From: a virus
Lineage: Duplodnaviria; Caudoviricetes
IMG/VR virus record: IMGVR_UViG_3300043414_000911
Span: 1 to 47,552 of that record
Length of the DNA: 47,552 nucleotides
Direction: 5' to 3' (one strand)
Positions within the stretch are counted from its first letter, which is position 1. Every line of letters begins with the position of its first letter. A program made the translations under genes and the position numbers. Shown one piece after another: positions 928-44,932 of the stretch. Under the pieces are notes generated by a model. The model saw nothing but the letters and a program-made list of their open reading frames with translations. It did no database searches and had not been told where the DNA came from.

Positions 928-1356
928 ATGAAACTATTACCCATCGCCGTTAAATCTGGAGGACTGGCGAAGCTCCTCAACAATCACATCATCATTGATG
1001 AAGTGGTCTCATCCAAGACAGCGACAGATGATTTCCCCAACAACAAATTAACGGTCCGCCAACAAGCGTGGCAACCAAACTACAAGTCCGTTCGCCTTAC
1101 CTATAAGACGGTAAAGCAAATCGTACACGGACCTGGAGACATCTACGACTCGATAAGGAAGTGGCATACCGACATCATATTCAAAGATGATAGATGGAGG
1201 ATGGCGCCAGCTTTAGCCAGCGGTCGCTTGGACTTCGAGACTTACTCTAACTATGTAGGCACGACTCAGTATCTTGCGGAAGTCATCCGAAGTATCGGAG
1301 ACAACAAACAACCATCAACATTCCAGCAATGGAAAGAAAGGTTCATCAATGCTTAA
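928..1356 (+). CDS. hypothetical protein
   Basis: ATG at 928 preceded by GAAAGGA; overlaps the next gene's start. Confidence 0.7.
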   Translation: MKLLPIAVKSGGLAKLLNNHIIIDEVVSSKTATDDFPNNKLTVRQQAWQPNYKSVRLTYKTVKQIVHGPGDIYDSIRKWHTDIIFKDDRWRMAPALASGRLDFETYSNYVGTTQYLAEVIRSIGDNKQPSTFQQWKERFINA

Positions 1357-2065
1357 GTTTAATCGCGGTAACGCCAAGCTTGGTAACAACATCTACACCT
1401 TCAGTCTACCAGCAGGTTACTCCTGCCCCGGCGCATTGGAGTGTTTGTCTCGAGCAGGTCGCCACGGAGGCGGACTGCAAGACGGATTGGAAACCAAGTT
1501 CCGATGCTTCGCCGCATCGGACGAAGCTCAGTACAAGAACACTCGCAACCAGCGATGGTTCAACTTCGACTTGCTCAAGGGCAAGACGAGTGAGCAGATG
1601 ACAACGCTGATCGAAGCAAGTCTACCCAAGAAGGCTATGCTCATACGCATCCATGTATCGGGTGACTTCTTCAACCAACATTACTTCGACGCTTGGGTTG
1701 CGGTAGCTCGGAACAATCCGAGCCGAACCTTCTACGCCTACACCAAGAGTCTACACTTCTGGCTGGCACGGAAGGATGAGATACCCGAGAACCTAGCACT
1801 CAATGCTAGCCGAGGTGGCACTCACGACTGGCTGATTGACACCTACCAGTTCAAGTCTGCGACAGTTGTGTTCAGCGAGAAGGAAGCCGAAGAGAAGGGG
1901 TTGAAGATTGATCACGACGACAGCCTCGCCTATCACTCCGAAGATTCATTCGCCCTGCTCATCCACGGGACACAGCCCGCTGGTAGCTTGGCATCCAAAG
2001 CCTTGTCTGCCTTACGAAAATTAGGCTGGACGGGTTACAACAAAAAGAATAAGAAAGGAAGCTAA
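1349..2065 (+). CDS. GP88-like protein (Cys-rich, radical-SAM-like fold suspected)
   Basis: 'NAKL...FSLPAGYSCPGA..C', 'RIHVSGDFF...YFDAW', 'FYAYTKS' match the phage gene-product-88 family. ATG at 1349 with GAAAGG RBS. Confidence 0.75.
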   Translation: MLKFNRGNAKLGNNIYTFSLPAGYSCPGALECLSRAGRHGGGLQDGLETKFRCFAASDEAQYKNTRNQRWFNFDLLKGKTSEQMTTLIEASLPKKAMLIRIHVSGDFFNQHYFDAWVAVARNNPSRTFYAYTKSLHFWLARKDEIPENLALNASRGGTHDWLIDTYQFKSATVVFSEKEAEEKGLKIDHDDSLAYHSEDSFALLIHGTQPAGSLASKALSALRKLGWTGYNKKNKKGS

Positions 2066-2942: not shown

Positions 2943-3548
2943 ATGAAAGTATTAGTAGCATGCGAGTACTCCGGCACAGTCCGTGATGCTTTCATTGCTC
3001 AAGGCCATCAGGCTATGAGCTGTGACATCATACCCACGGATGTTCCCGGCCAGCATTACCAAGGTGACGTAAGGAATGTTCTCGATGGTGGTTGGGACTT
3101 AATGATTGCCCATCCCCCTTGCACCTACCTATCCAACGCAGGAGCTAGGTTCCTGTACCCAAAGGGAAGGTTGAACAAGGCTAGACTCAAGCTGGGCAGG
3201 GAAGGACGAGAGTTCTTTATGGCGTTATGGAATGCCGACATTCCTATGATTGCCATCGAGAACCCCACTCCATCCACGGTCTTCAACCTACCCCGTTACG
3301 ACCAAGTGATTCAACCCTACGAGTTCGGGCATCCCGTGCAGAAGCGGACGTGCCTATGGCTCAAGGGTCTGCCACCATTGAGACCGACACGGGTTGTTAA
3401 GAACCCGCAGAGTAGCAAGGTTCCTGGCAACTGGTTTAACAAGGGTGGCAAGGATAGACAGAAGAACAGAGCAAAGACCTTCGACGGTATAGCAAAAGCA
3501 ATGGCTTCCCAATGGGGAGTCTTACAACATGAAAGGATAACAACATGA
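2943..3548 (+). CDS. phage DNA cytosine methyltransferase-like protein, copy 2
   Basis: Same motifs as 2068..2724 (ACEYSG, HPPCTYL, IENP, QPYEFGH, CLWLKGLP, GIAKAMA.QWG); AAGGAG RBS. Confidence 0.75.
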   Translation: MKVLVACEYSGTVRDAFIAQGHQAMSCDIIPTDVPGQHYQGDVRNVLDGGWDLMIAHPPCTYLSNAGARFLYPKGRLNKARLKLGREGREFFMALWNADIPMIAIENPTPSTVFNLPRYDQVIQPYEFGHPVQKRTCLWLKGLPPLRPTRVVKNPQSSKVPGNWFNKGGKDRQKNRAKTFDGIAKAMASQWGVLQHERITT

Positions 3549-3892: not shown

Positions 3893-4107
3893 GTCTACTT
3901 AACAAAGCCGCGGTCAAACGATCGGCGTTGGACTTGGCTAGTGCTAAGTTCAAGGAGCGAAACAAAACGAGGATGGAGATGGGCCTCGCCCCATTGAAAG
4001 CTCCACCATCCAGGGTGAGCGGTGAATTCATCGACACCTTCGAGGCCAAGGTGATTGGTCTCCTCAACACAATGGTATACGAACACAAGACAGGAGCAAC
4101 ACTATGA
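3889..4107 (+). CDS. hypothetical protein
   Basis: ATGA overlaps at both ends. Confidence 0.7.
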   Translation: MSLLNKAAVKRSALDLASAKFKERNKTRMEMGLAPLKAPPSRVSGEFIDTFEAKVIGLLNTMVYEHKTGATL

Positions 4108-4208
4108 CGGAAGCTGAACAAAAAGAAATTCTGGCTAGGATCACCGTTGATGAATGGCTAGACAAAATGTATGAAGAACGGAAACGAAACGAAAGGAAAA
4201 CACTATGA
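4104..4208 (+). CDS. 34-aa hypothetical peptide (not in ORF track)
   Basis: MTEAEQKEILARITVDEWLDKMYEERKRNERKTL; AGGAG RBS and ATGA overlaps with both neighbours. Confidence 0.65.
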   Translation: MTEAEQKEILARITVDEWLDKMYEERKRNERKTL

Positions 4209-4390
4209 ACATTGTGATCAATAAGAAGGAAGTCGATCAGAACTCTATAGAGATTGATCTAGTTCAATGGATTCATAAGTCAGCATCTTTTGTTGACGGA
4301 ACTCCTTTAGACGAAGATGATCTCTGTAAGCTTGACGAGATTCGTGAAGCTGAATTGACGGAAGAAATGCAAAACTACAGAAGGGAATAA
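4205..4390 (+). CDS. acidic hypothetical protein
   Basis: GAAAGGA RBS; ATGA overlap. Confidence 0.7.
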   Translation: MNIVINKKEVDQNSIEIDLVQWIHKSASFVDGTPLDEDDLCKLDEIREAELTEEMQNYRRE

Positions 4391-4394
4391 GACT

Positions 4395-4688
4395 ATGAAG
4401 AAACCTAAATTAAAATACTACATCGCAACAGTCAGGGAAACCTCTGGGGATACGGAATACGACACTCAGTATCTGTTTAAGACAACCAAATGCCCAATCG
4501 ATTACACCGATATGGTTGCGAGAACATGGAGAGGCGGAGACGTAGATAGCGAGATAGATAAAGATATGATGGGCTATTGGTCAGACAACGCCCTCATCCA
4601 AGCAGACGAGTACAGGAAAATCTCAGTCGGAGATTTCAATGTGCTCAAAAAATATCTGACTGTATCAGATAGTCTCTACATCAAATGA
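4395..4688 (+). CDS. hypothetical protein
   Basis: GAAGGGA RBS; tight gene packing. Confidence 0.7.
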   Translation: MKKPKLKYYIATVRETSGDTEYDTQYLFKTTKCPIDYTDMVARTWRGGDVDSEIDKDMMGYWSDNALIQADEYRKISVGDFNVLKKYLTVSDSLYIK

Positions 4689-4701
4689 AAGGAACAATAC
4701 T

Positions 4702-4944
4702 ATGACATATGCAATCAAACGTTCGGACGGTCTGTACTTAACAATCGACGAGACTTGGACAGAGCTAATGCCTGGACTGAAAGCCGATAACATCCGTGGC
4801 TACACGGAAGCGGAAGACGTCTTCAAGGAAGCTCGGCAGGTCAGCGGGATAGCCGTTGCCCATCCTTGGCCAGCAGGTAAACAGCGCGAGCTGTTCCCGC
4901 TATGGGCTGAGCTTGGACCGGAAAAGAAAGAAGAAACAATATGA
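4702..4944 (+). CDS. hypothetical protein
   Basis: GAAAGGA RBS. Confidence 0.7.
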   Translation: MTYAIKRSDGLYLTIDETWTELMPGLKADNIRGYTEAEDVFKEARQVSGIAVAHPWPAGKQRELFPLWAELGPEKKEETI

Positions 4945-5135
4945 ATAAAACTATTATGCTGGGGCGGGCATCCGCCTTCCCAAGTTCAACGGATGCGGGG
5001 ATGACGAAGCTTGAGTACATCGCTACTCAGATCTTCGCAGCCATGCATACCACAACCAACGCGGTGCCAGAGGAAAGCTACGCCGTACTCCAGGCGCACA
5101 ACCTACTAGCTGAACTTAATAAGGAGGAAGAATGA
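4941..5135 (+). CDS. small phage protein ('AFP...GMTKLEY.A...' family)
   Basis: 'SAFP.....GMTKLEYIATQIFAAM...AVLQAHNLLAEL' is a widespread small phage protein pattern; ATGA overlap. Confidence 0.7.
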   Translation: MNKTIMLGRASAFPSSTDAGMTKLEYIATQIFAAMHTTTNAVPEESYAVLQAHNLLAELNKEEE

Positions 5136-9061: not shown

Positions 9062-9280
9062 ATGAGAAAGAAAAGAAAAGAACCAGCAGATGTCGCCTTC
9101 GTTGGCGATGCGTTAAAAGAAAGTATCACGGAGCTTCCAACGATGCTCAAAGAAGAGTTTGGTGACTCTGGCTTTTGGCTTGGTTTGGGAGTCTTCATCT
9201 TGATTCCTACTATCTATTACGTCGGTACTGCTGCCGTATTACAAGGTATTCCAACGTTGATCTGGCGGGCTATCTTTTAG
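9062..9280 (+). CDS. small membrane protein on the strand opposite the late operon
   Basis: AGAAAGG RBS before ATG 9062; hydrophobic C-terminal half (FWLGLGVFILIPTIYYVGTAAVL..IPTLIW). Confidence 0.7.
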   Translation: MRKKRKEPADVAFVGDALKESITELPTMLKEEFGDSGFWLGLGVFILIPTIYYVGTAAVLQGIPTLIWRAIF

Positions 9281-12200
9281 CCCGTATCTCTGCTTCCAGC
9301 CTTGTCTTTGCGTAGTCGTTAGCCTTGGTAGCAAGATCATTAAGCTGCTTCTGGGCCAACTCTTTGTTCACCTTGGCTAGCCCTGCCAAAGTCTTGGCTT
9401 GCGAGACGGTCAAGGCTCGGCCCATATACTCAGCGTTATACTTCGAGAACTTGTAGAACTCCTCGCCACCTTGTAGCTTTCTCTTCTCGGCTACTCCATT
9501 TCTAAACACCGTGATCTTAGAGGCTGCGCTTATTCCAGGAATGACCAATCCCTCTTGGATCAAGGGGGTAATAACGGGATGAGGTTTAACGTCAGGAACA
9601 AACCCAAATCGTTTTGTAGTAGCCGACCATGGGTAGTTCCTGACTTCGTCCCCTAAACGATTAAGCATGGGCGCCCCTGTATATACAGCAATCGGAGTTT
9701 GTCCAATCAACCAACCGAACAAGGTTGCGTTCTGAGCTTTTGAATCTACAACTTTAATCTTTCCGTCCGCAGAAATAGGAACTGTCTGCGATAACCAGCG
9801 AGCAATACCTGGATTTAGGTATGCTCCAGTGTAACTACTCAAAAGTCTCTTTGCTCTATCCGTCGCACTTCCTCTATCACTTACTGCATCAAACAGGGTT
9901 TTAGCTCCCGACAACAAGTTCTTATCGACAACTGAGTTGGCAACCGACAAAGCAGAAGTAAACAAGATATTGTCCCATGTTGCTTCGTCGAGATCCTCGT
10001 ATCGATAAGCATCTGAAACCATAGCCAAGGCCCCAAAGAGAAGGTTCAAGCCTGGGAAATCCGTATGCTTGAATCGGATAGCACCAATCTTTACGGTGTT
10101 CTCTGTCCACCCAGTAGCTCGAAGCTGTTCCCTCTTATTCCTATCGGAAGGCCCACGCCCCGTCACCGCAAAGAAAGCCTCGTCCCAATCCTTATCCATA
10201 TCCTTCATCGCAAGACCGATGATTGACGCCATCACAATCGATCCGTAAAGAGCCTTGCTCCTTAGCTGGTAGTACTCGACACTTCCCTTTTCAGGCTTGC
10301 TGTACTTGTAAGAGGAATCTCGGATAGCCCCGGAGAGATTCCCGATTGATACTCCATTCGCCCTCAACCAACCGTAAGGAGTGTAGTCGATAGCAGAGTT
10401 AACAATATTTGCGATTGTTCTTGGGAACGCGGCAAAGGGAGTAAGGATCGGAACTTTTCCAGCGATGTTGCCGATAACTGCATCCATCAAATAACCGATC
10501 GAGCCTTTAGGTTGTCCGTTGAATGTGGCCTTTTGTGCGAACTCCCGCATCTTTGTAATCCCATCTTGCCCAATACCCGCTTGATCAACCACGTACCTTT
10601 CTCGAAGCTGGTTGAATCGCCGGCTCTTGCCAGCCTCTATCTTCCTCTTCTGGCTCTTATACTCCTTACTGTCAGGTGCAAGACCTGCCAATGTTCCAAA
10701 CTGTCCGAGCAACTCTTCATCATTGACCTGCTTCTGGATGGCCTGCATCCCAGCACTTGTCTTGCTGAAGATCTCATCTGCTTTTTGAGTAGCTTGTTCC
10801 GCTGTCAAACCCTGCTTCAACATGACATAGCGGGCTTCCATCCTGGCCTTAGCTTCGTTGGCGATAACAGAATTGTAAGTATCCGCAGCGGCCATAACCC
10901 GACCTACCAGTTTCCAAGCAGCAGCGTAGTTGTTAAAAGACCAAGGCTTATCTGGATCTTTATTTAATTTCTCCAGGGGATTGAGCTCAAGATTGTTTTC
11001 AGAACGGAATCGTGTCAGCCCGGTGGCCAAAGCGTTTCCAGCTTCCTGAACCCCCAGCCTACCAGCCGCTTCGACGTAGGCCATGTAAGCTTGGGCAAAG
11101 AAGTCTCCAAAGCTCGCCTTAATGCCTGCCCTCTTTGCTGCTTGGGCGTAAGCTTTGGCCTCCGAAGTTAACTCGAATAACACATTGATATGTGTTGCCC
11201 CTAAGTTGACCAACTGAGTAGGCGGACCCGATAGCACACCAGCTTTCCAAAGCGAGGCCAAAATATCCAAAACTTTTCCAACCTTTTCCCAACCCTTCCT
11301 CTGCTTGTCTAGCTCTTGTGAAATATAGGCGTTTAGTTCAATGGCCTTTGTAATCCTTTGATCGGAACTTTCTGGTAGCTGGCTGATTTGGTTGGCTCTG
11401 GCTACGATCTCTTTGGCTACAATCGGATCCCACTCAGGGATGTCGTATCGTTCAGCGATAGCATTATAAAATTTTTCTTGGCTGAAAGCCCCTAGGTTAA
11501 CCAGTTCCAAGAGCTGGCTGATTTTAGACTTCGGCATAGCTGTAGCCTTTTCTCCAATACGCCGAGTAATATTCTCAAGTTGCTTTTGCGCTCTCTCCTT
11601 AACCAAGGCGTTGTACCGAGCAGCCACAACCTTGGCCAACGCCACGACTTGTTCTTCCCGTAGGTTCGGGAACTTCTGGTTGATAAGTTGCTGGATCGAA
11701 TTCAGGGTAGCACCGCGTTGCATCATGTGCTTCCTTGATTCAGCCTTGAAGTCGATCGTGTTACGCAACAATGTGTCGATAGACTTTGTTGCATTGGCAT
11801 CAAACTTCTTCTCCAGCATAGCCTCGATATACGTCCGCCTCTCTTCTGACATCTTGCTTTCTTTACCACCCGCAACTAATTCGTTATCGGCACTTAGTTC
11901 GGCTTGTAGATTAGCTTGCACTTGATTGAAAACTTCTTCTGCCAAGGTTATCCTTTGTACAATATCAACTAACATCTCTTCCAAAGTTCGAGCATCCTCG
12001 GGGCTGACCTTCTTAGGATCGAGCTCCTGCTTCATCTGAGCATTCACAATCTTCCGGACTTGAGCTTCAAGTTGATCGAAAGATCCTTTCTCGGTCACTT
12101 TCTTATCTACCCCCAGAGAGCGAAGAACTCTCTTGGTAATTGTATCAGCAGCATACTTTGCAAGTCTCACGACTGGGGGAATGGCCGTCTCTTCCGCTCT

Positions 12201-15200
12201 CTTCGCTGCTTGGATCTCTTCTTCCATGGTCTTCTCAACAGCCTGTTGCTCAGCAGCAACGGTGTCGAAGAAATCAAATACACCTTGCAACGCATCGATC
12301 TTTTCCTGTTTGGCTGTAGGAGAAGCCTTGCGAATATCAAAATTGGTTTGTAGCTCCTCGTTGGTGGAAGTACCCACAGCTTGTACCCGAAGTTTAACTA
12401 ACTTGCTGAACAAGTTCGGATCAATCTTGGTCAATGCTCTGATCGCATCGATTGCAGACATCGCCTTGAGATCAGCCGGTAGCACCCGATCAACCCCACC
12501 TGGAGAAACGGAAGACGCTTTGATCCCCTCGAGCGACGCGATCAGATCATTGTACGAGATACCAATACGGCCAAGATAACCTAAAAAGTCTTCTCCTTCT
12601 GTTGGAGCCAAGTCCCCGAAGACCGATAACAACTTGTAGAAGTTCTCTCCTTCTGGGATAGCTTCGGTTGGTGGCCGTTGTCCAATTGAGATCCCGCCCT
12701 TTTCCCCTACATTGAAACTATCTTGTGCAGCTAGCCCCGAGATAGTTGCCTTCAACTTCTCGATCTCGGCCAAGAGTTGTTGGACTTCATCCTTTGATTC
12801 CAGAACTTCTTTCTGCTTTTCAAATATAGGATCGGTATACATCTTGGAAGATTTAAGTGGGTAGAGAAGATCGGCTCCGATATTCGCGCCACCTAAATCT
12901 CTTCCCGCTATGCTATATGCTTCAGCCAACTGCCCACCGATATACATAGCGTTATTAACCAAATAGTCTTTCAAAGCCGAACGTTCTGGAGAATCTCCCT
13001 TAGCTTTGATCTGGGCATCTAAGGCCAACGAACCATCCCGTAGTTTAGTTACAATGACGGCAAGGATAGCATTTCTTTCGTTGGTCTCGAGCCCCTTAGT
13101 CGAATCTAAAATGGATTTAGCCCGTACCAAATCTTCTGGGTCTCCAGTCGGAGCAACTCTTGTGACAAAGTCATTAGCTCTCTTCAGAGTATCTGCTCTG
13201 GTTTGTTTGACAATCTTCCGCTGGGAAAGTACGGCAGCCACGGCGGGATCAAGACCTTTGATGCCCCTGCGAAGGGCTTTGCTAGTGGTAAGGATATCAA
13301 TCGAAGAGGCAAGCGGAAGGATAGATCGATTCGGTGGCGGTTCGCCCACAATTCTGGGTGAGGCAGTTTGTACCTCGACAAGGTCGGAGACTGCTTGTAG
13401 AACCTCCGCCAAGATAAAACCTTTGGCTATATCTTTAGCTGGTTCATTAATATTTCCCGATATGAAAATAAACAATTCTTTTACAAACTGTTTTAGTTTA
13501 CCAAAAGCAGTTGTATTTCCTTCAACTTTAACCTTAGATAAAAAAGCTTGAAAGCCCGGGTTAGAAAAAGCTTGAGCCATGAATTCGTCGACATCCGATA
13601 ACTCATACGCGAATAACTGTTTTTCTTGTCTGCTCGCTGCATTGAGAACTGTGTCGTAAAGACCTCGTATATCTTCTATTTTGCCAAATATTTTAAGCAT
13701 CTGGTCTGGATTATACTGAGACACAAGATACTCAAATTCGGAAACCTTAAACTCCCCGTCTATTAGTTCTTCAAGAATCGTTGCTTTTTCTTTCCCTGGT
13801 CTCGTGAGAAGTTCGCCAAGTGGCACACCTTCTTTTTCACTTTTCGGCAGATCGATTCGATCTCTGGCAAATTCATATATACCATTGATCCTAGAAGTAG
13901 CCTTATGGATAAGCTCGTGGAGAACAGTTGCCCCTAAAGCGCTATTGAAATATAGAATTTTCTTTTTCTCTTGGTCAATGACCTGTTGTTTTGTTGGCTT
14001 ACCTACAAATTTAGATCTTGTTCCGAAATCATAAGAAGAGATTAGTAAATCTTTATTCAAAAAGATTTCATCTTCTTTCGCTTGGTAGAAAGCAAGGGTT
14101 TCTGATTTTAATCTAGAACGTTCTTTTGCCCCTATTTTCTTTTTATTATTTATTGAGTAATACTCGTCAATATTAGAGGCTGGCGAAATATCTGTCTTTC
14201 CAGACTTAAATACCCAATCCCATTTTGGATTATTTACGATGTATCTTGCTAGTGATTTGAGTGGTTCTTGTGCATTGAGAGATTCACTTGCGATGTTATT
14301 TACTATCTTTTTTAGATTTTTAGGCGCTACCAAATCATCGTATAGTTTTGTTACCATCTCGATAGACGCAGGATCATTATTCAAACTGACAGAAGAAGCC
14401 AACTGTCTTCTAGGAGCGTAAAGTTCTTCCCGCTTAATGCCACCTTCGGCCAGGGCCTTGGCAAACTTTTGCTTGGCAGAGTCAATGGCACGGTAAAAAT
14501 CAGCAGGGTACAGAACCTTTCCTGGTTCGGAGTACTGTTCGAGAATGGAGTCGACCGTATCCGCCGTGTAACGTGGACGGCGTACGAGTTCACCCTCTTC
14601 GTTCTCGCTCTCAGGAACCAAGGAGTAGGCCAAAGCATCTGCCTCAAATGATGTGAGGTTGGCTTTCTCCATCAACTTTTGAACCTCCGCCCGTTGAGCC
14701 ATCTCGGCAGGGTCAAGTACGATCGCTGTCTGCCTAGCCAAGTTACCAGACTCGATGTCGTCAGCCGTCCCATCTTGAGCAGTCGACTCACCGGTCAGAT
14801 CTGTATCGCCAAAAGTCTTTCCAAGTCTGGTCTCTGGAACTTCTTTAGTGCCCACCCGTTCCGCTTTTCGAACTTCTTTCTCTAATCCCTTTGCGGTTTC
14901 TTCCGGGGTCACGCCCTTTCTCTCGCCTCTCGCCCTACGGGTCTTAACTTTTTCCTCACCAGTTTTTTTAAGGGTTTCTAAAGATACCTCATCGGAGGTC
15001 TTAGCCGTTGCTTTTAACTTGTCGTACTCATCCGAAAGAACCTTCAGGTCAAAAGGTGTGGTGGCAAACTCATCGTTAAAGCTCACAAACTCAGGCCCTG
15101 CTTCTATCTTTCTCAGCTCATCAATAATTTTTCTGGAAGCAAACTTAAATACTCGGGTAGATGGTTTGGCGCCTTTGGTAGCGTCGTAACCAGTAGCTGC

Positions 15201-18200
15201 TGATGCGAGGGATTCCAGAACAGCCTGTTCAACAACATCAGCATTTACCTGACCCTTGAAAGCTCTCGCCAAACCACCGACTACTAACCTTCGGATCAAA
15301 CCGTCTGGTCCCATTCCCTGTGCCAACTCTGCCATGACTTCCTGATCAATTTCTGCATTGAGTTTGTTATCGACATCCAACTCGTCCAACTCCTGCAAGG
15401 TCAAAGCAGAAGCTAAGTCTTTTCTTGGGATGATTACGTTGGTCTCGTTGCCCGCAGCAATCTTTTCATTTGTTGGGGCATTGGCCAGCAAACTTACAAT
15501 CGCGTCGCTTCGATCGTCGATGAAAGATTTTCTAGTACTCGCCTTGGTTCCCTTACCGATTAACTTGAGGAACCTATCCCGCAAAGCGGCCAACGTACGG
15601 AGGATTGGCCGAGTAGTATACTTCTTAACTTGATCTTCGGTAATCTGTCCGCTTTCCCGTCTTTGTGTAATCGCTCGTAAGTACTCTTCCCCTAGGCGTC
15701 CTGGCCTCCCGACATTAAACTCCGACACAATCTGTTCTTTGGTTTTTCCTTCGAAAGAGATCCCTAAAGAGTCGGCGTAAGAAGACAGAACATCCTTGAT
15801 TTGTTCAATCGTCAGGCTGTCTTCTATCTCTTTATTGTTAGCATCGTAAAACTTCTCGTAAGCTTCCTGTGTAATCTCTGCCGGATTAGTCGCCTTGAAA
15901 GCATCATACATCGCCCTCCCGTCAGTCATGTGAATGATTTCTTCCTGTAACATCTTCACAAAGAAATCTGCTGGGTCAACAGCAGCGTTCGACATCAAAG
16001 CTTTAAATAGTTTAGACGGGTCAACAAACAATGTATCCAAGCTTGTAAGATTTCTTGGGTCGGCGTACACACCAGAACCACCCCGCTCTTTAATAAAGAC
16101 AACCTTATTGAGAACCTTTTTAGCAAAATCGCTCGCAAGCTTTTCCCGACCTTTACCTGCTGTACTTTTCTTTATGAGATCATTACGGGCATTGGACAAC
16201 CCAAGAGTAATGATACGCATCAAAGCTTGGAGGCGTTGGCGTACAAGAGGGGTGATCTCGGTTCCTTTGAAGTACTCTTGAACGGACGCCTCGTCCAAGG
16301 TCATGTCGAGCAATTCAGCAGCTAGATCATCAAACGATTTCTGGAGATCGGCCTGTGCCTTATTTAATCCCTCTTCCGGGGAGACGTTTGTTGAGGCTGG
16401 TTTAACCTTTGCAGATGCCACAGGTTTACTAGCTTTTCTAGGCGTTGGCTGTGGCGGTGTAGCTCCGGGCTGTCCGGCGGGAGTTTGCGTAACTTCGACA
16501 CCTTTGGCTTTTTCTTTTTCAACTCTTGGTTTTCTCTTTCTCGCGGCAACAATTTCTTTTGCCTGAACCCTATCTAATCCCGCGATGTCCGCTGGTAAAT
16601 ACCCCAGTCGAGCTAGAGCTTGTGCTTGGGTTTTGGTCAGAGGGAGTTTCTTAGTTGCTGGTGCTGCGGTGGTAGGAGCTGGGGCAGTCTGCTCTCTTTT
16701 CGCTAGCTCAGATTCAAAGATTTCTGAAGCGTCCCTATCGAGTTTAGAGAGAGAATTAGCTTTGCCCTTGAACAATCTCCTTAGAGTTAGTTTCTCTTTT
16801 TGTGTTTTAGCTTTGTCTAGTTCGGCCAACCACCCTTTAGCTACCTCCGCCGAGGAACTTGCTTTAGTTGCTGGTGCTGGGGTGGCACCAGAGATTGGGA
16901 GGACTGGAGCGGGAGCTGGGGCTGCTGTAGGTTTTTTCGGGGCAACCTGCTGTTCCTGCTGATCGATAACCGAGAAAATCTGTGATTCGATTTGGTTCTG
17001 CTTGTCGTAGAAATCGCCTTCGTAGTACTTAGCCGCGTCTTCAGCTTCTTGCTGAGTATAACCCCCCTGAACATATTGATTGATCAAAGCCTTTCGCGCC
17101 TCTTCCGTTACACTCTTCCCCGTAAACGTAGAAGTTGGTGAAGTAGAGATGTTATTGGAAGCTAGAAAATCTGTAACCACTTTAGTGATTCCCGAGACAT
17201 TTAAAGTTGGGTTGAGACTTACAATCAGATTGGCGAGACGACCATAAGTATCCGGGTGAAGGTCAATCTGTATCATCCCCTTGATTGCTCGAGCTACTAA
17301 ACGAGCAATAGATTTTTGCGATTGCGAGAGGGGGATAGAAACTTGAGAAGTTTTAGGGGTTTTGACTTCACGAACAACTCCGACCTTATCCTTTGGAGCT
17401 TCCTCTAAAGGTGCTGTCGCTGGCGTATCGGCCTTGGGTGCTTCAACGGCTGGGGCTGGAGCTTCAACAATAGGAGTAGGAACAGGGGCTGGGGCTGGCA
17501 CTTCTGTTTTTGCTGCCTTAGACTCTTCCGCAACAACCGTGGCAGTAGCTGGGGCAGTTTCAGTCAGGGTTTTGGCCGAGGCTGGGGAAATTTGTTGAGG
17601 TGTGGAAACCCCGACTACAGGAGGAGTCGGTTCTTCAAAAACTTTCTTCGCCTCTTCTTCAGCTTGAGCCACAGTTGGCTCTGCTGTAGGGGCTGTGACA
17701 GTCGTAGGCTCCACCCCAAGAGCAACTTGTTCAACTGGTACTGGCGTAGGGGCTGGGGCACCTTGAGCTTCGGGTGCTATCTGCGTACGAGCTGTATTGA
17801 AAGCCTGTTGAACGTTCGCTTTCTCTTGGTCAGACAAAGTATCGTATGTTCCTTGACCCTCGGAGAGAATTGCATTGTCTGCCAACCCGAGAACTTTGGC
17901 CTTTTGCGATAGGTTGAGTACGTCGTAGAACTGAGAGGCAACAACATTCGACAAAGGCTGAGACAAAAGCTTGGTCAACTCCCCCTGCCTAAGGTCTTGG
18001 ATGGACTGTCTGTTTACTTCGTCAGCCGTAGCAGGAGAATTGTTCCTATTCAGGTTTTCAATTACCAGCCCGCCAGCTTCCACCGCAGACATAGGTAATC
18101 CAACGGCTAACTCTTCGGCTACCTCGTTCCATCTTATATTTCCAGACTTCCCACCCGCTACTTCAGCTTTCTGAGCAGCGATTTCGCTGACAGGTTCGCC

Positions 18201-19193
18201 AGCAATTTGAATCGCTGTCTGTTTTAAACCTTCTTTAGCAAATCCTTTTAACCCCTGTTTCTCAAGTGTCTTAAGGGGAGTAGAAACGAACCTACCAAAT
18301 CCAAGAGTTGCGTATTCGCTAGCTCCAATTGCAAGACCTCGACCTTCCGCTGCTGCTTTAGATGAGCCTGCCCAATTTGGGTCGTCCAAAACTTGTTTTA
18401 CATCTGCTGGATTATAGGGGTCTAATCCCCGTTTTTGCATTTCATCCGATAAAAATTGGTCCATGCTCACCATTGTGTCAGTCATCCCACCCATTACTGC
18501 TCCTGTATTAAGCCCAGCAGCAGCTCCAACTCCAGGCCCACCCACGGCAGTCCCAATAGCAGAAGCTACAAGGGAAGCCCCTATTGCTGGAGCATTAGAT
18601 CCCATGCTTTGAGCTAACATTGGTATAGCTAAATCAAAGGGCTTAGAAACAATGTCCCCTAAAGACCCAAAAAATCCTTGTTGTTTCTGCCCGTACGCTT
18701 GCAGGGCTGGGTTAATATAACGATTTCGTTCAGCCAACCTACGTTCTACGATAGCTCTTGCCGCTGAATCAGTATCTACAAATCCGCTCGCTGCCCCGTA
18801 GGCCAAAGATCCAGCTTGCAAAGCGTTAAGTCCAGATTGTGCCTGTCCAATTATCTCCTCGGCGTAGCTTGGTGCCTCAAATCTAGGTTTCTTTAAATTG
18901 TCTTGCTCAGCTGCCTTTTCAAAATACTGTTTGGCGTAGTCGATGTCAGACTCGGTCTGCAACGTGCCACTATTAACCATGTACTTGGTCGCGTACTCAC
19001 GCCAAGAATCAAACAAACCTTGCTTTTGGTCTAATGGGAGGGACCCGTAGGCTGGGTCTGATCGGTAGGAGTCCCAAGTCTGGAACGCATTAGGTTGAGT
19101 AGCCTCTACTATTGGCTGTGTTTCTGGGGTCAGTTGCCCTAATTGCGTCCCCGAGACATCTGCTTGATCCTCTGGGGTAAACAACTGCGCCAT
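9270..19193 (-). CDS. giant (3307 aa) internal virion / ejection polyvalent protein
   Basis: Position after the smaller ejection genes. Pro/Ala linkers, zincin HELIH...DEFMAQAF, degenerate QEEIIH, sigma-like segment, and C-terminal 'LSGPPTQLVN' and 'TGRGP.D...R..L...GW....KIG' motifs typical of large podoviral internal proteins. Confidence 0.8.
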   Translation of the reverse strand: MAQLFTPEDQADVSGTQLGQLTPETQPIVEATQPNAFQTWDSYRSDPAYGSLPLDQKQGLFDSWREYATKYMVNSGTLQTESDIDYAKQYFEKAAEQDNLKKPRFEAPSYAEEIIGQAQSGLNALQAGSLAYGAASGFVDTDSAARAIVERRLAERNRYINPALQAYGQKQQGFFGSLGDIVSKPFDLAIPMLAQSMGSNAPAIGASLVASAIGTAVGGPGVGAAAGLNTGAVMGGMTDTMVSMDQFLSDEMQKRGLDPYNPADVKQVLDDPNWAGSSKAAAEGRGLAIGASEYATLGFGRFVSTPLKTLEKQGLKGFAKEGLKQTAIQIAGEPVSEIAAQKAEVAGGKSGNIRWNEVAEELAVGLPMSAVEAGGLVIENLNRNNSPATADEVNRQSIQDLRQGELTKLLSQPLSNVVASQFYDVLNLSQKAKVLGLADNAILSEGQGTYDTLSDQEKANVQQAFNTARTQIAPEAQGAPAPTPVPVEQVALGVEPTTVTAPTAEPTVAQAEEEAKKVFEEPTPPVVGVSTPQQISPASAKTLTETAPATATVVAEESKAAKTEVPAPAPVPTPIVEAPAPAVEAPKADTPATAPLEEAPKDKVGVVREVKTPKTSQVSIPLSQSQKSIARLVARAIKGMIQIDLHPDTYGRLANLIVSLNPTLNVSGITKVVTDFLASNNISTSPTSTFTGKSVTEEARKALINQYVQGGYTQQEAEDAAKYYEGDFYDKQNQIESQIFSVIDQQEQQVAPKKPTAAPAPAPVLPISGATPAPATKASSSAEVAKGWLAELDKAKTQKEKLTLRRLFKGKANSLSKLDRDASEIFESELAKREQTAPAPTTAAPATKKLPLTKTQAQALARLGYLPADIAGLDRVQAKEIVAARKRKPRVEKEKAKGVEVTQTPAGQPGATPPQPTPRKASKPVASAKVKPASTNVSPEEGLNKAQADLQKSFDDLAAELLDMTLDEASVQEYFKGTEITPLVRQRLQALMRIITLGLSNARNDLIKKSTAGKGREKLASDFAKKVLNKVVFIKERGGSGVYADPRNLTSLDTLFVDPSKLFKALMSNAAVDPADFFVKMLQEEIIHMTDGRAMYDAFKATNPAEITQEAYEKFYDANNKEIEDSLTIEQIKDVLSSYADSLGISFEGKTKEQIVSEFNVGRPGRLGEEYLRAITQRRESGQITEDQVKKYTTRPILRTLAALRDRFLKLIGKGTKASTRKSFIDDRSDAIVSLLANAPTNEKIAAGNETNVIIPRKDLASALTLQELDELDVDNKLNAEIDQEVMAELAQGMGPDGLIRRLVVGGLARAFKGQVNADVVEQAVLESLASAATGYDATKGAKPSTRVFKFASRKIIDELRKIEAGPEFVSFNDEFATTPFDLKVLSDEYDKLKATAKTSDEVSLETLKKTGEEKVKTRRARGERKGVTPEETAKGLEKEVRKAERVGTKEVPETRLGKTFGDTDLTGESTAQDGTADDIESGNLARQTAIVLDPAEMAQRAEVQKLMEKANLTSFEADALAYSLVPESENEEGELVRRPRYTADTVDSILEQYSEPGKVLYPADFYRAIDSAKQKFAKALAEGGIKREELYAPRRQLASSVSLNNDPASIEMVTKLYDDLVAPKNLKKIVNNIASESLNAQEPLKSLARYIVNNPKWDWVFKSGKTDISPASNIDEYYSINNKKKIGAKERSRLKSETLAFYQAKEDEIFLNKDLLISSYDFGTRSKFVGKPTKQQVIDQEKKKILYFNSALGATVLHELIHKATSRINGIYEFARDRIDLPKSEKEGVPLGELLTRPGKEKATILEELIDGEFKVSEFEYLVSQYNPDQMLKIFGKIEDIRGLYDTVLNAASRQEKQLFAYELSDVDEFMAQAFSNPGFQAFLSKVKVEGNTTAFGKLKQFVKELFIFISGNINEPAKDIAKGFILAEVLQAVSDLVEVQTASPRIVGEPPPNRSILPLASSIDILTTSKALRRGIKGLDPAVAAVLSQRKIVKQTRADTLKRANDFVTRVAPTGDPEDLVRAKSILDSTKGLETNERNAILAVIVTKLRDGSLALDAQIKAKGDSPERSALKDYLVNNAMYIGGQLAEAYSIAGRDLGGANIGADLLYPLKSSKMYTDPIFEKQKEVLESKDEVQQLLAEIEKLKATISGLAAQDSFNVGEKGGISIGQRPPTEAIPEGENFYKLLSVFGDLAPTEGEDFLGYLGRIGISYNDLIASLEGIKASSVSPGGVDRVLPADLKAMSAIDAIRALTKIDPNLFSKLVKLRVQAVGTSTNEELQTNFDIRKASPTAKQEKIDALQGVFDFFDTVAAEQQAVEKTMEEEIQAAKRAEETAIPPVVRLAKYAADTITKRVLRSLGVDKKVTEKGSFDQLEAQVRKIVNAQMKQELDPKKVSPEDARTLEEMLVDIVQRITLAEEVFNQVQANLQAELSADNELVAGGKESKMSEERRTYIEAMLEKKFDANATKSIDTLLRNTIDFKAESRKHMMQRGATLNSIQQLINQKFPNLREEQVVALAKVVAARYNALVKERAQKQLENITRRIGEKATAMPKSKISQLLELVNLGAFSQEKFYNAIAERYDIPEWDPIVAKEIVARANQISQLPESSDQRITKAIELNAYISQELDKQRKGWEKVGKVLDILASLWKAGVLSGPPTQLVNLGATHINVLFELTSEAKAYAQAAKRAGIKASFGDFFAQAYMAYVEAAGRLGVQEAGNALATGLTRFRSENNLELNPLEKLNKDPDKPWSFNNYAAAWKLVGRVMAAADTYNSVIANEAKARMEARYVMLKQGLTAEQATQKADEIFSKTSAGMQAIQKQVNDEELLGQFGTLAGLAPDSKEYKSQKRKIEAGKSRRFNQLRERYVVDQAGIGQDGITKMREFAQKATFNGQPKGSIGYLMDAVIGNIAGKVPILTPFAAFPRTIANIVNSAIDYTPYGWLRANGVSIGNLSGAIRDSSYKYSKPEKGSVEYYQLRSKALYGSIVMASIIGLAMKDMDKDWDEAFFAVTGRGPSDRNKREQLRATGWTENTVKIGAIRFKHTDFPGLNLLFGALAMVSDAYRYEDLDEATWDNILFTSALSVANSVVDKNLLSGAKTLFDAVSDRGSATDRAKRLLSSYTGAYLNPGIARWLSQTVPISADGKIKVVDSKAQNATLFGWLIGQTPIAVYTGAPMLNRLGDEVRNYPWSATTKRFGFVPDVKPHPVITPLIQEGLVIPGISAASKITVFRNGVAEKRKLQGGEEFYKFSKYNAEYMGRALTVSQAKTLAGLAKVNKELAQKQLNDLATKANDYAKTRLEAEIRAKR

Positions 19194-24581: not shown

Positions 24582-26642
24582 TTATAATAGGTAGTTACTG
24601 ATGCCGTAGCGATCAACTGTGTCGCCTCTGCATAAATCACCGTTACCGTTATAGCCAACGCTATAGATCTTCCCGTCGGATGTCAGGACTTCAAGGTGAG
24701 CATATTGTGAGTAGCCCTGCCATCTAAGATCTACAACATCGGCTCTAGTCATCTTGTATTTACCCCAATCTGGGTTAGACGCAACACTTGCCCCAGTCTG
24801 TCGCCCAAGTCTGCAATACCCTTCGTAACCCGCGGTATAAATAGAACCGTCACTCAGTAAGAGTGCAGTTGATTGAAAATTCCATTGGCTACATGCAATT
24901 TTAACTACTGTTCTCCCCGCATATTGCGTAAATGTATTTGTTGGTGTTAACCCATCGACTGTTCCCCCGTTACCCAATTGTCCGTAACCATTATAACCCC
25001 ACACCCTTATCGTTCCGTCGTTCATTATCGTAGCAAAATTTCCGTAGTAGCCACCAACTCCGGTAACAGTATTAACTCCCGAAGCTATAACTAGCCCCGC
25101 ATAACCAGCACCTGTGCTAGCGCGACTACCCGTTCCCAATTGACCATGCGCATTGTAGCCAGCCGTCCATAACCCCCCAGTAGTGGTGCTAACGGCAATA
25201 CTTGGGTAATCGCCACTTATATGTATATTTTTTGCGTTCTGAACGGGTACTCCAGCAGCGCTCTTCCAGTAACCGAGGCTAGAGTTTGTTGTAACTGTCC
25301 CGTTAGCCAAAGCCCCATGCCCGTTGTACCCAGCTACTAAAACTTGGTTGTTAACATTCGAGACAATCATCGCACAGATAGTTGTGTTACTTGTAACATT
25401 TGGGCCAATAGCCACATCTGATATGATATAGGAGGTACCGGTTCCGGGGACTAAAACGGGTACATTTTGCTGAGTAACATTTCCAATTCCAAGTTGTCCG
25501 TAACCATTATAACCCCATGCGTACACAGAGCCATCCGCAGCCAACGCCATAACAGAATGTGTTTCTGTGGTAGAACCGGAGTGGGTTGCTATCTTAACAA
25601 TTGGTTTATTAGAAAAATAGGTTTGGGGGATTTGCTGAAAGACAAAAGAATTGCCTGTGTAATTGAAACCTAATTGTCCATAGCCACCGTAGCCAGTACT
25701 CCACACGCTCCCAAACTCGTCTATAAGCCAAGAAGTTCCACCAGAGGTATACCATTTTACCGGCATTGGGGGATTATTTGAATCCGTATATAAAAATACT
25801 TCTTGGGGGAGAGAGGCTATCCCATTCCATTGTGATATCCCAAGTTGACCGTAAAGGTTATAGCCGAAACTCTTCAACTTACGATCTGACGTCATAATCA
25901 AAGAGCCATGTTGTGTTCCAGCTACTCTCGTCATCGAGTCAGTTGTAGTGGCTAGACCATTAGGAATAGCATAAGCTACGGCTCTGGCTGTCGTACCAGA
26001 GACTGGAGCTCCGATGGTGACAACTGGATCCGATAGGTAACCAGAACCACTACTGGTGAGAACAATTGAAGTAACCGCCGTACCCGAGACAATGGCTGTC
26101 GCAGTTGCTGTTAGTCCTCCGGCTGTCGCCGGAGCAGAAATCGTTACCGTTGGTGGGGTTGATGGGAGGTACCCGGAACCACCGTTGAACACCACAACAT
26201 TCTTTACAAAACCATCCGTAAGCACTCGCCCACCGACCCGAGACGATGCGGAATTAAGTATAGCGTTTCTGTCAGCAACGTTAAATTTAGAGATATACAA
26301 AGAACTGTCGGCAAGCTTCTCGGTTGTAATAGCTTGGTCAGCAATCTTAGGGGTCGTTACCCCAAGGTTATTAATCTTGTCCGTGGTAACCGCCGAATCT
26401 TGGATATGATTGGACGTTACGGCACGATTCGCATTATTAGAAATATCATTCTGTAACTTATCAGCGGTTACCGCGTCATCAACCAGTTTGACTGTGGAGA
26501 TGGTATTATTAGCAGGTAAAAAAAGTCCGGAAGACTGAGCAGTAGCAAAAGTAAGTCTTTTAGTGACAGCCCCTTGTACGATTGGAAACTCGTCGGTAGT
26601 CTGAGCCGAGGCTGCAGAAGGTAGGGCTGAAATCCTAGGCAT
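24582..26642 (-). CDS. tail fibre / receptor-binding protein with RCC1 beta-propeller
   Basis: 'AVTxDKI' fibre repeats, 'GGSGY...PTVTI.AP' repeats, then about seven 'WGYNGYGQLG.G' RCC1/BLIP-II repeats. Confidence 0.85.
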   Translation of the reverse strand: MPRISALPSAASAQTTDEFPIVQGAVTKRLTFATAQSSGLFLPANNTISTVKLVDDAVTADKLQNDISNNANRAVTSNHIQDSAVTTDKINNLGVTTPKIADQAITTEKLADSSLYISKFNVADRNAILNSASSRVGGRVLTDGFVKNVVVFNGGSGYLPSTPPTVTISAPATAGGLTATATAIVSGTAVTSIVLTSSGSGYLSDPVVTIGAPVSGTTARAVAYAIPNGLATTTDSMTRVAGTQHGSLIMTSDRKLKSFGYNLYGQLGISQWNGIASLPQEVFLYTDSNNPPMPVKWYTSGGTSWLIDEFGSVWSTGYGGYGQLGFNYTGNSFVFQQIPQTYFSNKPIVKIATHSGSTTETHSVMALAADGSVYAWGYNGYGQLGIGNVTQQNVPVLVPGTGTSYIISDVAIGPNVTSNTTICAMIVSNVNNQVLVAGYNGHGALANGTVTTNSSLGYWKSAAGVPVQNAKNIHISGDYPSIAVSTTTGGLWTAGYNAHGQLGTGSRASTGAGYAGLVIASGVNTVTGVGGYYGNFATIMNDGTIRVWGYNGYGQLGNGGTVDGLTPTNTFTQYAGRTVVKIACSQWNFQSTALLLSDGSIYTAGYEGYCRLGRQTGASVASNPDWGKYKMTRADVVDLRWQGYSQYAHLEVLTSDGKIYSVGYNGNGDLCRGDTVDRYGISNYLL

Positions 26643-35709: not shown

Positions 35710-36933
35710 TTACGAGTAGCAACCAACGAGGCCGAAGTCGGCCGCGCAGCGCTTGTGGCGGATAACCACACCGAGCTCAGGACGAACGGGTTTCGAACCG
35801 GAGCTAAAGATAGCCCGGAAGAATCCGATCGTACCGTCTGGGTTACAATCCCGGCTGGGGATATTCCGCCAGCGGAAGTCACCGCGGTAGCTCTGCGGGT
35901 CAAAGCTAGCAGCTCCGGTGCCGGAGATGGGCTTTGCGACCAGCGAGGTGAACACGTCGGGGTGGAAGATAATAGAATCTTCGTATTCCGCCGTGAAGTA
36001 CGCGGGATTCGGGATGTACCGTGTGCCCTTGGATGCGCTAGCATCGGTGGCATACGGGTTACGACGAACCCAAGCTCCACCGACGAGATCGTAGCGAGGA
36101 GTCATGGTGTCTACCAAGTGGTAGAAACCAGCGTAGCTACGTTCGACGCCGAGGGGCTGAATCAGTTCGCTTGGTTTTGCCCAACGGAGATCCTGACGGA
36201 TGTCCGCGTTGAGCTTGATTAGGTCGTCAGAAGCCTCGGGGGAGGTAACGAGCAAGAACACGGGAGCACCGTTTTCTTTGCCGTATGCATTCTGACCAGC
36301 GCCGTCACGGATCAACCTGGAGTAGAAATAACGCAGGATGCCCTGTGTCAATCGGCTCGTCGGGAGAGCGGAGGTGCTGAATGAACCCTTGGTCTGGCCA
36401 GAAGCCGCCAAAAGTTCACCTTGATTAGCGTTTACGTTGTAGTTAGCGAGACGAACGTATTCGTCACGGTAACGGTTTTCCCAAGCATACTGAGTGTTCT
36501 CAGTCATCACCGCCATGATGTTGCGGAGCTGTTCCTGACGACGAACGGGGAACCGTAGGTCATTCAAGCAGATGTCGGGGGAGTTGATCGCCGCCTGTTG
36601 GAGGTTGTAGGTGCGGAGGGTCTGGGCAAAGCCGAGGTTATCTCCGGTTACAGCGCAGGTTCCGGGTCCGGTGTTCGAGCCAGAGGGGGTAGCCCCGATG
36701 ACTTGAGTTCCGACTCCGTTATACGCAACGTCCGTGAAGCTGATCGAACCACCGGAAGCCGGTAGAGTCCGCTCATAGATCAGAACGTTAACAGTTGTGC
36801 CCATCTCATCTGGCCAAGCCTCTTGCTTAACCAAAGTCGTCCACGGGGACGTGTTCAAAGTCTTCCGATAGATATCCGCACCGATACGGCCGGACTCAGT
36901 AATCAGAAGATTCTCAATATTTGTACATGCCAT
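35710..36933 (-). CDS. major capsid protein
   Basis: 407 aa; strong AAGGAG RBS, downstream terminator, position after portal and scaffold; HK97-like spacing of motifs. Confidence 0.85.
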   Translation of the reverse strand: MACTNIENLLITESGRIGADIYRKTLNTSPWTTLVKQEAWPDEMGTTVNVLIYERTLPASGGSISFTDVAYNGVGTQVIGATPSGSNTGPGTCAVTGDNLGFAQTLRTYNLQQAAINSPDICLNDLRFPVRRQEQLRNIMAVMTENTQYAWENRYRDEYVRLANYNVNANQGELLAASGQTKGSFSTSALPTSRLTQGILRYFYSRLIRDGAGQNAYGKENGAPVFLLVTSPEASDDLIKLNADIRQDLRWAKPSELIQPLGVERSYAGFYHLVDTMTPRYDLVGGAWVRRNPYATDASASKGTRYIPNPAYFTAEYEDSIIFHPDVFTSLVAKPISGTGAASFDPQSYRGDFRWRNIPSRDCNPDGTIGFFRAIFSSGSKPVRPELGVVIRHKRCAADFGLVGCYS

Positions 36934-37182: not shown

Positions 37183-37878
37183 CTACCGTAAAATAGTTTC
37201 TAATTCTTGTCTGTTAGTGTCTAAGCCTCCCCATGACCAAAACTGCCTAACAGTAGGTTTATCCTGTTCGGGGTATCTCCAGTCAAACTTGTCCCGATGG
37301 TGCTTCCAAGCGTATGCCCCTAGGGTATTATACTCACTAAACCTACGGTCAGGCCGAGTGGCCACAAAAGTGTCAAAAGGCACTTTATGGGTAGCTTGGA
37401 GGAAATCCCGCATCTCTTTGTATAACCATCTAGGGAAGGTATGTGGGGGACGACGCATAAACTCAAACTCTGGTTTCCACCCAACAGCTTCTTCCACAAT
37501 GGGTTGCCAAGGACATTCTCCTATCTTATCGTAAGGCTCGTAATACAGGATGGCTTTGCCTTTGTGGATAAAATCCTTGGGAAAAACGTCGTGTAACCAA
37601 ACAGTATCGGAATCAATGTGACAAATGAAATCGGCGTCAGAGTACAAATCAGCGTTTAACTTAGTTACCTGCTGGCCCAAGTAATCCTCTGCATACCTGG
37701 GGCAGATATGTACTTTCTCTAAAGTCAAATGGTTTAGCTCGTGCTGGTCACCATGGGGTACGACAATATGGATCTGACGAAAACCCTTGGCTGACTTAGC
37801 GCAGGACTTCAGGCAATAGGAAAGCCACTCGAAGTCTTTCTTGTAGCTACGGATGAAGAGGTCTACAGAGGCTTGCAT
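37183..37878 (-). CDS. GT-A-fold glycosyltransferase (DUF6492-like)
   Basis: 'LFIRSY.KD..WL..CLKS','IHIVVP','GQQ..KL.AD','HIDSDTV' (DxD motif),'FSEYN.LG.Y'. Confidence 0.75.
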   Translation of the reverse strand: MQASVDLFIRSYKKDFEWLSYCLKSCAKSAKGFRQIHIVVPHGDQHELNHLTLEKVHICPRYAEDYLGQQVTKLNADLYSDADFICHIDSDTVWLHDVFPKDFIHKGKAILYYEPYDKIGECPWQPIVEEAVGWKPEFEFMRRPPHTFPRWLYKEMRDFLQATHKVPFDTFVATRPDRRFSEYNTLGAYAWKHHRDKFDWRYPEQDKPTVRQFWSWGGLDTNRQELETILR

Positions 37879-38516
37879 AAAAGATCGTATTGGGGTCCTT
37901 CCTCGGGAGGAAATGATTCCAATCCGTATCCGAGCTCAGACCTAAGATAAGTGATTAATGAGATAGGGGATTCTCCACGTTGCTGTAAGGCATGTTCGTT
38001 AACCTCAATCCACATGACTGGACGGTGCTTCGTTATGGTTTTCTTAGCACCCTTCAATGCGAATAATTCAAAGCCCTCCACGTCCAACTTAAAAAAATCA
38101 AGCCTAGGTAAATCATAAGAGTCCAAGGACACAACAAAAACAACTCTGTCACCAGAATCAGTTATGCGACTCGACCCAGCGTTATCGGACACAGAAAAGA
38201 ATTGGCTACTGGGTTTATCGCTAAGCCCAGCTTTGATTGTTATCGCAGAGGGGCAATTATAAACTAGGCATTCGTAGGCAGATAAATTGGGTTCGAAGGC
38301 GTAGACTCTTCCAGTAGAACCAACAGCCTTAGCGTAGGCAACGGTATGATCCCCAATAAAAGCTCCGGCATCAACGACGTAATCGCCTTCCTTGATGTGT
38401 TTTAAAATAATTGGGAGAGAATATTCGTCGTGATCCAACTTTCCGGTCTCTTCGACCCAGCGGGAAATATGAGAATCGTTTTCTAAGACTGCTATATTAT
38501 TCGGTAGGATCTTCAC
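37863..38516 (-). CDS. FkbM-family SAM-dependent methyltransferase
   Basis: 'VVDAGAFIG.HT','GRVYAFEPN','LDFFKLDVEGFE..AL.GA..TI....P...IE'. Confidence 0.92.
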   Translation of the reverse strand: MKILPNNIAVLENDSHISRWVEETGKLDHDEYSLPIILKHIKEGDYVVDAGAFIGDHTVAYAKAVGSTGRVYAFEPNLSAYECLVYNCPSAITIKAGLSDKPSSQFFSVSDNAGSSRITDSGDRVVFVVSLDSYDLPRLDFFKLDVEGFELFALKGAKKTITKHRPVMWIEVNEHALQQRGESPISLITYLRSELGYGLESFPPEEGPQYDLLCKPL

Positions 38517-43151: not shown

Positions 43152-43180
43152 TAGATACTCAATTAGATGGGAACGGTCAA
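43152..43180 (-). promoter_or_regulatory. late promoter-like motif
   Basis: TTGACC-N17-TATCTA-N10-GTG. Confidence 0.55.
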
Positions 43181-44874: not shown

Positions 44875-44932
44875 CGCCTGATGGTAACAGATTCCCCTTG
44901 GCAATCCACTCTTTTTATAAGAGATGCTTTGA
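44875..44932. promoter_or_regulatory. 58-bp divergent control region between late and replication genes
   Basis: On -: extended -10 TGtTACCAT-N6-ATG; on +: TTGGCA-N17-GAGATG-N6-ATG. Confidence 0.5.

Follow-up and report, generated by a model that had tools for sequence, protein, structure and literature searches.

A diverged sigma-70-like module within a giant, likely ejected protein of an uncultured phage family

Phages are known to start transcription with the host holoenzyme or with an injected polymerase. Here we describe a sigma-like module inside a giant multi-module protein encoded on a stretch of 47,552 nucleotides of viral DNA (IMG/VR record IMGVR_UViG_3300043414_000911; Duplodnaviria, Caudoviricetes), which was analysed at its full length and is called the window throughout. 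Among described systems, the protein recalls the polyvalent proteins, which passages of Iyer et al. 2017 (PMC5512222) define and for which they propose self-processing by zincins. Like these, it is a giant multi-domain product of the virion gene block, with several unrelated domains that vary between relatives, zincin (HExxH) and ART-PolyVal cassettes among them. Unlike in the polyvalent proteins so described, the cargo that stays constant here is a sigma module, and the cassettes are bordered by a short motif; the word sigma has 0 occurrences in the main text of PMC5512222, the supplements being outside this count. We take the giant protein to be a polyvalent, likely ejected protein of a new form, with sigma as its cargo. 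Absent from the original prediction were the motif at the borders, the zincin-like domain upstream of the module and the cassettes that are swapped between relatives.

Transcription machinery in a giant virion protein with a metallopeptidase domain is also found in the N4 virion RNA polymerase (vRNAP) and in gp96 of P23-45, according to passages of PMC10770324; virion polymerases are likewise the subject of PMC13434306. Those proteins carry a catalytic polymerase, whereas here only a specificity factor is seen, and four of four records, near-complete relatives among them, gave no match to an RNA polymerase beta gene (the control was positive in 14/14). The search for single-subunit RNA polymerases ran without a positive control, and a very divergent polymerase could escape it. 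With two-domain alternative sigma-70 factors of the extracytoplasmic function type (ECF, group 4) the module shares domain 2 homology, a linker and a C-terminal helix-turn-helix (HTH); its best sequence scores fall to FliA/WhiG (group 3). It differs from two-domain factors in being embedded in a protein of 3307 aa, in a charged linker of ~130 residues, in scores mostly under the family cut-offs, in an HTH without a Sigma70_r4 match and, in the window's clade, in the loss of the residue equivalent to Y430. Stand-alone phage sigma factors, handled as separate genes in passages of PMC7824862, would similarly redirect the host core polymerase; they are small genes in their own right, whose products are made after infection, whereas the module forms part of a probable virion protein. 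Pro-sigmaE and pro-sigmaK, in the portion of PMC4598750 consulted, have their sigma activity set free by cutting a precursor, as may happen here, but they are cellular and bear a short N-terminal extension, whereas two cuts in a phage polyprotein would be needed for the module. The literature searched, most subscription papers lying outside it, held no report of a virion protein with a sigma factor inside it.

Our preferred reading, to which we assign a probability of about 0.5, is that the virion carries and ejects a diverged sigma-70 module of the two-domain, ECF-like kind, which is cut free, binds the host core polymerase and starts the first phage transcripts.

The sigma-like module and its relatives

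The original prediction placed sigma regions 2 and 4 within 14450-15330 and quoted peptides for both. These are present, in frame in the giant open reading frame (ORF): the region 2.2-2.4-like stretch corresponds to residues 1322-1364 (~15102-15230), FVSFND to residues 1369-1374 (15072-15089), and LTSFE begins at residue 1513 (14640-14657), 144 residues past FVSFND, where about 150 had been given. The module does lie at the predicted place, with slightly wider bounds (14403-15416; Table 1).

A six-frame search of the genome with Pfam Sigma70_r2 produced a sole window match (E 1.5e-4; Table 1). The same family matched a 100-aa piece of the protein at E 0.003 with 17.8 bits, the window's copy standing at 17.6-17.8 bits against a curated cut-off of 24, and all seven NCBIfam matches of this piece were sigma models, with FliA/WhiG best. 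The six-frame search gave one match per record in 4/4 records (the window and the relatives G001, G004 and G005), each within the giant ORF, and no second or stand-alone sigma match in any of them. One of these domains, that of G001, passes the Sigma70_r2 cut-off (27.3 bits vs 24), and it also matches a PHROGs sigma family. Against PDB sequences, the window module retrieved at E<=10 only two FliA chains (2/2, E 0.7), and a four-sequence region-2 profile retrieved sigma factors in 6/6 matches. The region-2 and region-4 profiles used for counting were built from the same 44 proteins that they detect; the non-circular test is a leave-out profile that excludes the window's clade. By this test window region 2 scored 36.5 bits, against a maximum of 5.3 in 200 shuffles, and window residues 1237-1603 scored 64 bits with the leave-out profile of the whole module (maximum 6.3 in 200 shuffles). 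The window copy lies under the Pfam cut-off but is orthologous to the relatives' copies by the leave-out profile.

Structure prediction agrees with the profiles. An AlphaFold2 model of the module, built on a 43-row alignment, gave domain 2 a predicted local distance difference test score (pLDDT) of 74-89, and each of the 49 PDB rows listed by Foldseek bore the title of an RNA polymerase or a sigma factor (best E 6e-4, one at E<=0.001); the TM-scores were low because the predicted domain arrangement was unresolved. A single-sequence fold was poor for domain 2, yet yielded the same kind of Foldseek list. The top viral structure rows (BFVD) were sigma factors of Bacillus, Aeromonas, Vibrio and Synechococcus phages, none at E<=0.001. 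Look-alikes of the module in the ESM language model, at 0.95, include phage clusters in which 94% of members have Sigma70_r2 and 46% Sigma70_r4, the top three being unnamed. The ArsC1' N-terminal domain, the top row of the VIA structure comparison and a weak Pfam match, was rejected as the identity, being absent from scans of relatives, whereas sigma recurs there. Judged from profiles, predicted structure and relatives, residues 1260-1597 hold a real, diverged sigma-70 domain 2, and the predicted region 2 homology is thereby upheld.

When the window module was the query, five proteins were found, namely that of the window plus four others with 91-95% identity. With phmmer the module gave only two hits among 1.84 billion representatives, the protein P0003 and one spurious ankyrin-repeat protein. 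The C-terminal part of the giant protein reached further, retrieving 58 proteins including the window's own, two of which are named sigma24 family proteins in the automatic annotation of JGI. The survey of homologous giant proteins that had been proposed with the original prediction thus found the module in 44 of the 58, defined as those with the upstream domain at E<1e-20, in which the 400 residues after that domain were aligned; the other 14 are more distant and gave no match. Window region 2 alone detects 39/58, and the order of domain 2, linker and HTH is alike in 44/44 aligned proteins. Sixteen relatives were scanned; among the 14 with the module, Sigma70_r2 matched at E<=0.05 in 10, sigma was recognised by NCBIfam only in three, and P0041 gave none. 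No module match was found in the giant ORFs of four distant phage genomes (G016, G018, G020 and G021) or in a 1667-aa ORF of contig L005. Scanning viral and metagenome contigs with patterns from the module turned up no locus, and 50,697 annotated phage records held no match to the upstream domain with the module, nor to the putative capsid protein.

The module diverges fast. Eight relatives compared with P0003 are 20-37% identical over region 2 and 17-31% over region 4, whereas the upstream domain reaches 38-56% and the C-terminal part 47-66%. In one pair outside the window's clade (G001 and L001), nonsynonymous divergence (dN) is 0.10 in region 2, where synonymous divergence (dS) is saturated, and dN is 0.03 with dS 1.16 in region 4; by these estimates the module is under purifying selection in that pair.

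The linker is ~130 residues long and 8-26% identical among relatives, with predicted helices at pLDDT 45-56 that leave room for a remnant of domain 3. The HTH domain that follows (pLDDT 48-74) stands where region 4 had been predicted. P0040 matches a sigma model across regions 2 to 4 (profile positions 36-202 of 206, E 2e-5), and ESM look-alikes of the HTH domain at 0.91 and 0.89 are clusters with Sigma70_r4 in 10-25% of members, rank 2 being a cluster named sigma region 4. Its position in the alignment, its predicted helices, this language-model lead and the P0040 match argue that the HTH domain is probably sigma region 4.

The giant protein, its borders and its cassettes

The C-terminal part of the giant protein matches phrog_6651, a family of internal virion proteins, at E 2e-17 over ~200 residues. 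It also matches 13 phage records at 22-31% identity over about a quarter of the query, most of them internal virion or core proteins of cyanopodoviruses. The giant ORF is flanked upstream by SU10-type adaptor and tail fibre genes and downstream by the endolysin. Homology to internal virion (ejection) proteins and a place in the virion gene block are both seen here; on these two grounds the giant protein is probably carried in the virion and leaves it along with the DNA.

A motif of the LASSID type occurs 92 times in the 44 proteins, against 4.1 expected in shuffles; the pattern was written after the alignment had been viewed, so that the enrichment is descriptive, and the C-border copy of P0038 and the N-border copy of the window fall outside it. 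The motif stands at the C-terminal border of the module in 43/44 proteins and at the N-terminal border in 34/44, with 15 further hits downstream, and no other window ORF of at least 150 aa contains the pattern. Copies within one gene differ in their codons, including TCN/AGY serine switches, and the motif is therefore taken to be maintained at the protein level; an origin as a DNA repeat was disfavoured on the same ground. The simplest reading is that the border motif is likely a cut site. As a separate observation, the giant ORF of G018 (65957-75820) has the same EExxH and a border-like motif at residues ~1108 and ~1765, with no detectable sigma module.

Nine stretches that end at the further-downstream copies were inspected and proved to be optional cassettes of several unrelated kinds. 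The window's own has HExxH at residues 1759-1763 with an acidic motif downstream and weakly matches the C-terminal region of the N4-type virion RNA polymerase (E 0.0015); in three close relatives it is replaced by an ADP-ribosyltransferase cassette, and ART-PolyVal scores above the cut-off in P0003 and P0038. Straight after the sigma module, P0045 carries a motif-bounded cassette with an RNA polymerase alpha C-terminal domain (alpha-CTD)-like domain (residues 1547-1591; PF03118, 26.8 bits, above the cut-off). The conserved domain upstream of the module, which gave no family match, is a candidate processing protease by its motifs.

Table 1. Features of the giant protein and its sigma-like module (window coordinates; residues of the 3307-aa protein)
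Feature	Coordinates	Strand	Remarks
Giant multi-module (polyvalent-type) protein	9270..19193	minus	ORF of 3307 aa; last large gene of the particle block, with the endolysin gene downstream
Conserved domain just upstream of the module	15489..16256	minus	Zincin-like by motif reading only: EExxH, then an EEY motif
N-terminal border, degenerate motif LASALT	15399..15416	minus	Aligns with LASSIDP of relatives
Sigma-like module	14403..15416	minus	Residues 1260-1597; a border motif at either end
Sigma domain 2 (regions 1.2/2.1-2.4)	15099..15371	minus	Residues ~1275-1365; Pfam match at 15108-15290
Charged, low-confidence linker	14715..15098	minus	Residues 1366-1493, FVSFND at its start; no recognisable domain 3
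Helix-turn-helix domain, probably sigma region 4	14424..14714	minus	Residues 1494-1590; two insertions relative to relatives
C-terminal border motif LASSVS	14385..14402	minus	Edge of the sigma module
Optional cassette with canonical HExxH zincin motif	13314..14402	minus	Missing from many relatives
Third border motif LASSID	13296..13313	minus	Closes the optional protease cassette
Podovirus internal virion protein-like stretch	9852..10466	minus	Residues 2910-3114, inside the most conserved, C-terminal part

How the module may act

In the preferred reading, C-terminal homology and gene position suggest that the giant protein would be packaged in the virion and ejected with the DNA. Cleavage at the LASSID-type borders, to which the protein-level motif and the protease-like neighbours point, would free a two-domain sigma factor of ~340 residues, the protease being possibly the upstream EExxH domain, or else a host or head protease. 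From the roles and definitions of sigma domains 2 and 4 in the consulted text of PMC4598750, the freed module would bind the host core RNA polymerase, recognise promoters and start early transcription. A broader and more tentative proposal, which we rate as less likely than not, is that this uncultured phage family packages a complete sigma factor in its ejection polyprotein, excises it at the LASSID-type sites together with swappable effector cassettes and redirects the host polymerase to phage promoters ahead of all phage gene expression.

A number of results weigh against the preferred reading. With regard to domain 2, the whole 3307-aa protein as a Pfam query gave no sigma match, the window's own Sigma70_r2 and NCBIfam scores fall under the curated cut-offs, and the VIA comparison ranks first a non-sigma helical domain (Z 9.0, root-mean-square deviation 3.0, 69 aligned), sigma rows reaching only Z 7.0 (1sig at a deviation of 2.0, 70 aligned). 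For region 4 of the original prediction the results are weaker: Pfam Sigma70_r4 matched the HTH domain neither in the window nor in the relatives' pieces searched, the leave-out region-4 profile scored the window copy at 2.8 bits, which is chance, and the HTH-domain profile found AdeR (an OmpR-type HTH) as its best PDB match at E 0.006, SigB reaching no better than E 0.76. The Pfam check proposed with that prediction accordingly found Sigma70_r2, under the cut-off in the window and above it in G001, and no Sigma70_r4. The window's N-border copy is degenerate, and the upstream domain reads EExxH, the first His of HExxH being missing in 42/42 relatives tabulated. No shared promoter candidate emerged from self-BLAST and gapped-word counts over the early regions of five relatives (G001, G004, G005, G006 and G014), which returned ribosome-binding-site repeats and one 36-base duplication (G004/G014); a repeat search of the window likewise gave no promoter candidate. 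No cultured phage with the module was found among the 50,697 annotated records. Finally, in all five proteins of the window's clade an Arg takes the place of the Y430-equivalent, and position 1344 is Pro, where the others have Phe (29) or Leu (10).

This last point bears on promoter melting, in which the region 2.3 aromatic (Y430, or Y76 of FliA) stacks on the flipped -11 base, as described in passages of PMC12784957. FliA Y76 aligns with Arg1347 of the window protein, and melting may be weakened or altered in the window's five-protein clade. The degeneracy of the melting residues noted in the original prediction is therefore real in this clade; it does not extend to the 39 other relatives, whose residue is Tyr (35), Trp (2) or His (2), and the loss of the aromatic in just one clade weakens a family-wide decoy reading. 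In region 2.2, Gln1323-Ala1324 are identical to the FliA residues in the alignment; these columns vary among relatives, so that core binding, for which sigma-70 factors use the beta' coiled coil, is not readable from the sequence.

An injected sigma decoy, which would occupy the host core polymerase or soak up anti-sigma factors or activators, dampening host transcription and opening no promoters, is unlikely, though it is the alternative that survives best. The Arg and the Pro of the window's clade suit it, as does the failure to find a phage promoter motif in the early regions of five relatives, and the alpha-CTD-like domain after the module of P0045 fits a theme of mimicry. It has to contend with the Tyr, Trp or His kept in 39/39 relatives outside that clade and with the retention of both DNA-reading domains, under purifying selection in the pair tested; moreover, FliA is active without its tryptophan pair (PMC12784957, in the passages concerned), and loss of an aromatic alone does not prove inactivity.

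Less plausible still is that the ejected protein stays uncut and keeps the host polymerase tethered to the entry channel; transcription would then pull the genome in, and the motif would be only a recombination joint. The C-terminus does resemble internal virion proteins of T7-like podoviruses, cassettes do start and stop at the motif, and passages of PMC5512222 offer a precedent in the N4 virion polymerase, packaged uncut despite a zincin domain. However, the synonymous differences between motif copies, TCN/AGY switches included, fit protein-level selection better than a DNA repeat, and the sigma module, a constant part of 44/44 family members, is flanked by the motif as well.

We consider improbable a late-acting sigma factor, cut from fresh polyprotein late in infection to boost middle or late transcription in the same cell and dispensable at entry. 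The gene does sit within the late block, the lack of a stand-alone sigma match in 4/4 records means that late transcription would proceed without another evident sigma, and phage sigma factors are not known as virion proteins (separate genes, in the passages cited above). Yet a late sigma factor whose gene closes its own late operon would make an awkward switch, and the neighbouring ADP-ribosyltransferase and zincin cassettes are of types thought to be injected (passages of PMC5512222). That the domains are repurposed or chance helical folds with no role in transcription is very improbable: the module is less conserved (17-37% identity) than the upstream and C-terminal domains (38-66%), its structural Z-scores are middling and it is absent from the 14/58 more distant relatives and the four distant phage genomes, but sigma matches agree across Pfam, NCBIfam, PHROGs, PDB sequences, Foldseek and the language model, and the ordered layout of domain 2, linker and HTH goes with purifying selection.

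Neighbouring features and implications

The window is a partial genome; the relative G001 (65,938 bases, with a terminal repeat) shows the early region that the window lacks. Within the window we take 43177-45006 to be the terminase, 40868-43141 the portal and 35710-36933 the capsid gene, labels given by reading only and without a database match. The sole hint at a host is a capsid relative at 53% identity on L005, a 71-kb contig in a Luteolibacter assembly that is possibly a binned phage.

Other features of the window include two paralogous DNA methyltransferase genes near each other (2068-2724 and 2943-3548, both phrog_757), also present in G001; a glycosyltransferase-like (DUF6492) and an FkbM methyltransferase gene within the head gene block (37183-39255), where G001 has other ORFs; a tail fibre-like protein with RCC1 repeats (24582-26642); and a ribosome-binding context ending in ACTATG that is common to several genes (4095-4945, 46620-46635). 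Rfam gave no match in the window at gathering level.

The early regions of relatives hold several non-coding elements. Between early genes of G001 (L009, 7549-7612, minus strand) lies a Hammerhead type II ribozyme-like element (33.8 bits vs a gathering threshold of 37, E 2e-5). After the first early gene, L006 (~1290-1370, minus strand) and the matching places in G004 and G006 share a conserved, probably structured intergenic element with no credible Rfam match. Ahead of the early genes, L006 (~2470-2870) and the matching places in G004 and G006 hold a non-coding block that is conserved, contains inverted repeats as well as an AT-rich core, and is a candidate origin or packaging site. Upstream of the first early gene in G004, G014 and G006, and at L009 ~5640, a short hairpin with the same core directly precedes the ribosome binding site.

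The border motif predicts the ends and the size (~340 residues, ~37 kDa) of the released protein. The fast divergence of the module relative to its flanks, with one clade devoid of the melting aromatic, offers natural variants for studies of promoter opening. If our reading is true, injecting a sigma factor would give phages a third and cheaper way into pre-early transcription, beside host-sigma promoters and virion polymerases, one that is independent of the sigma state of the host.

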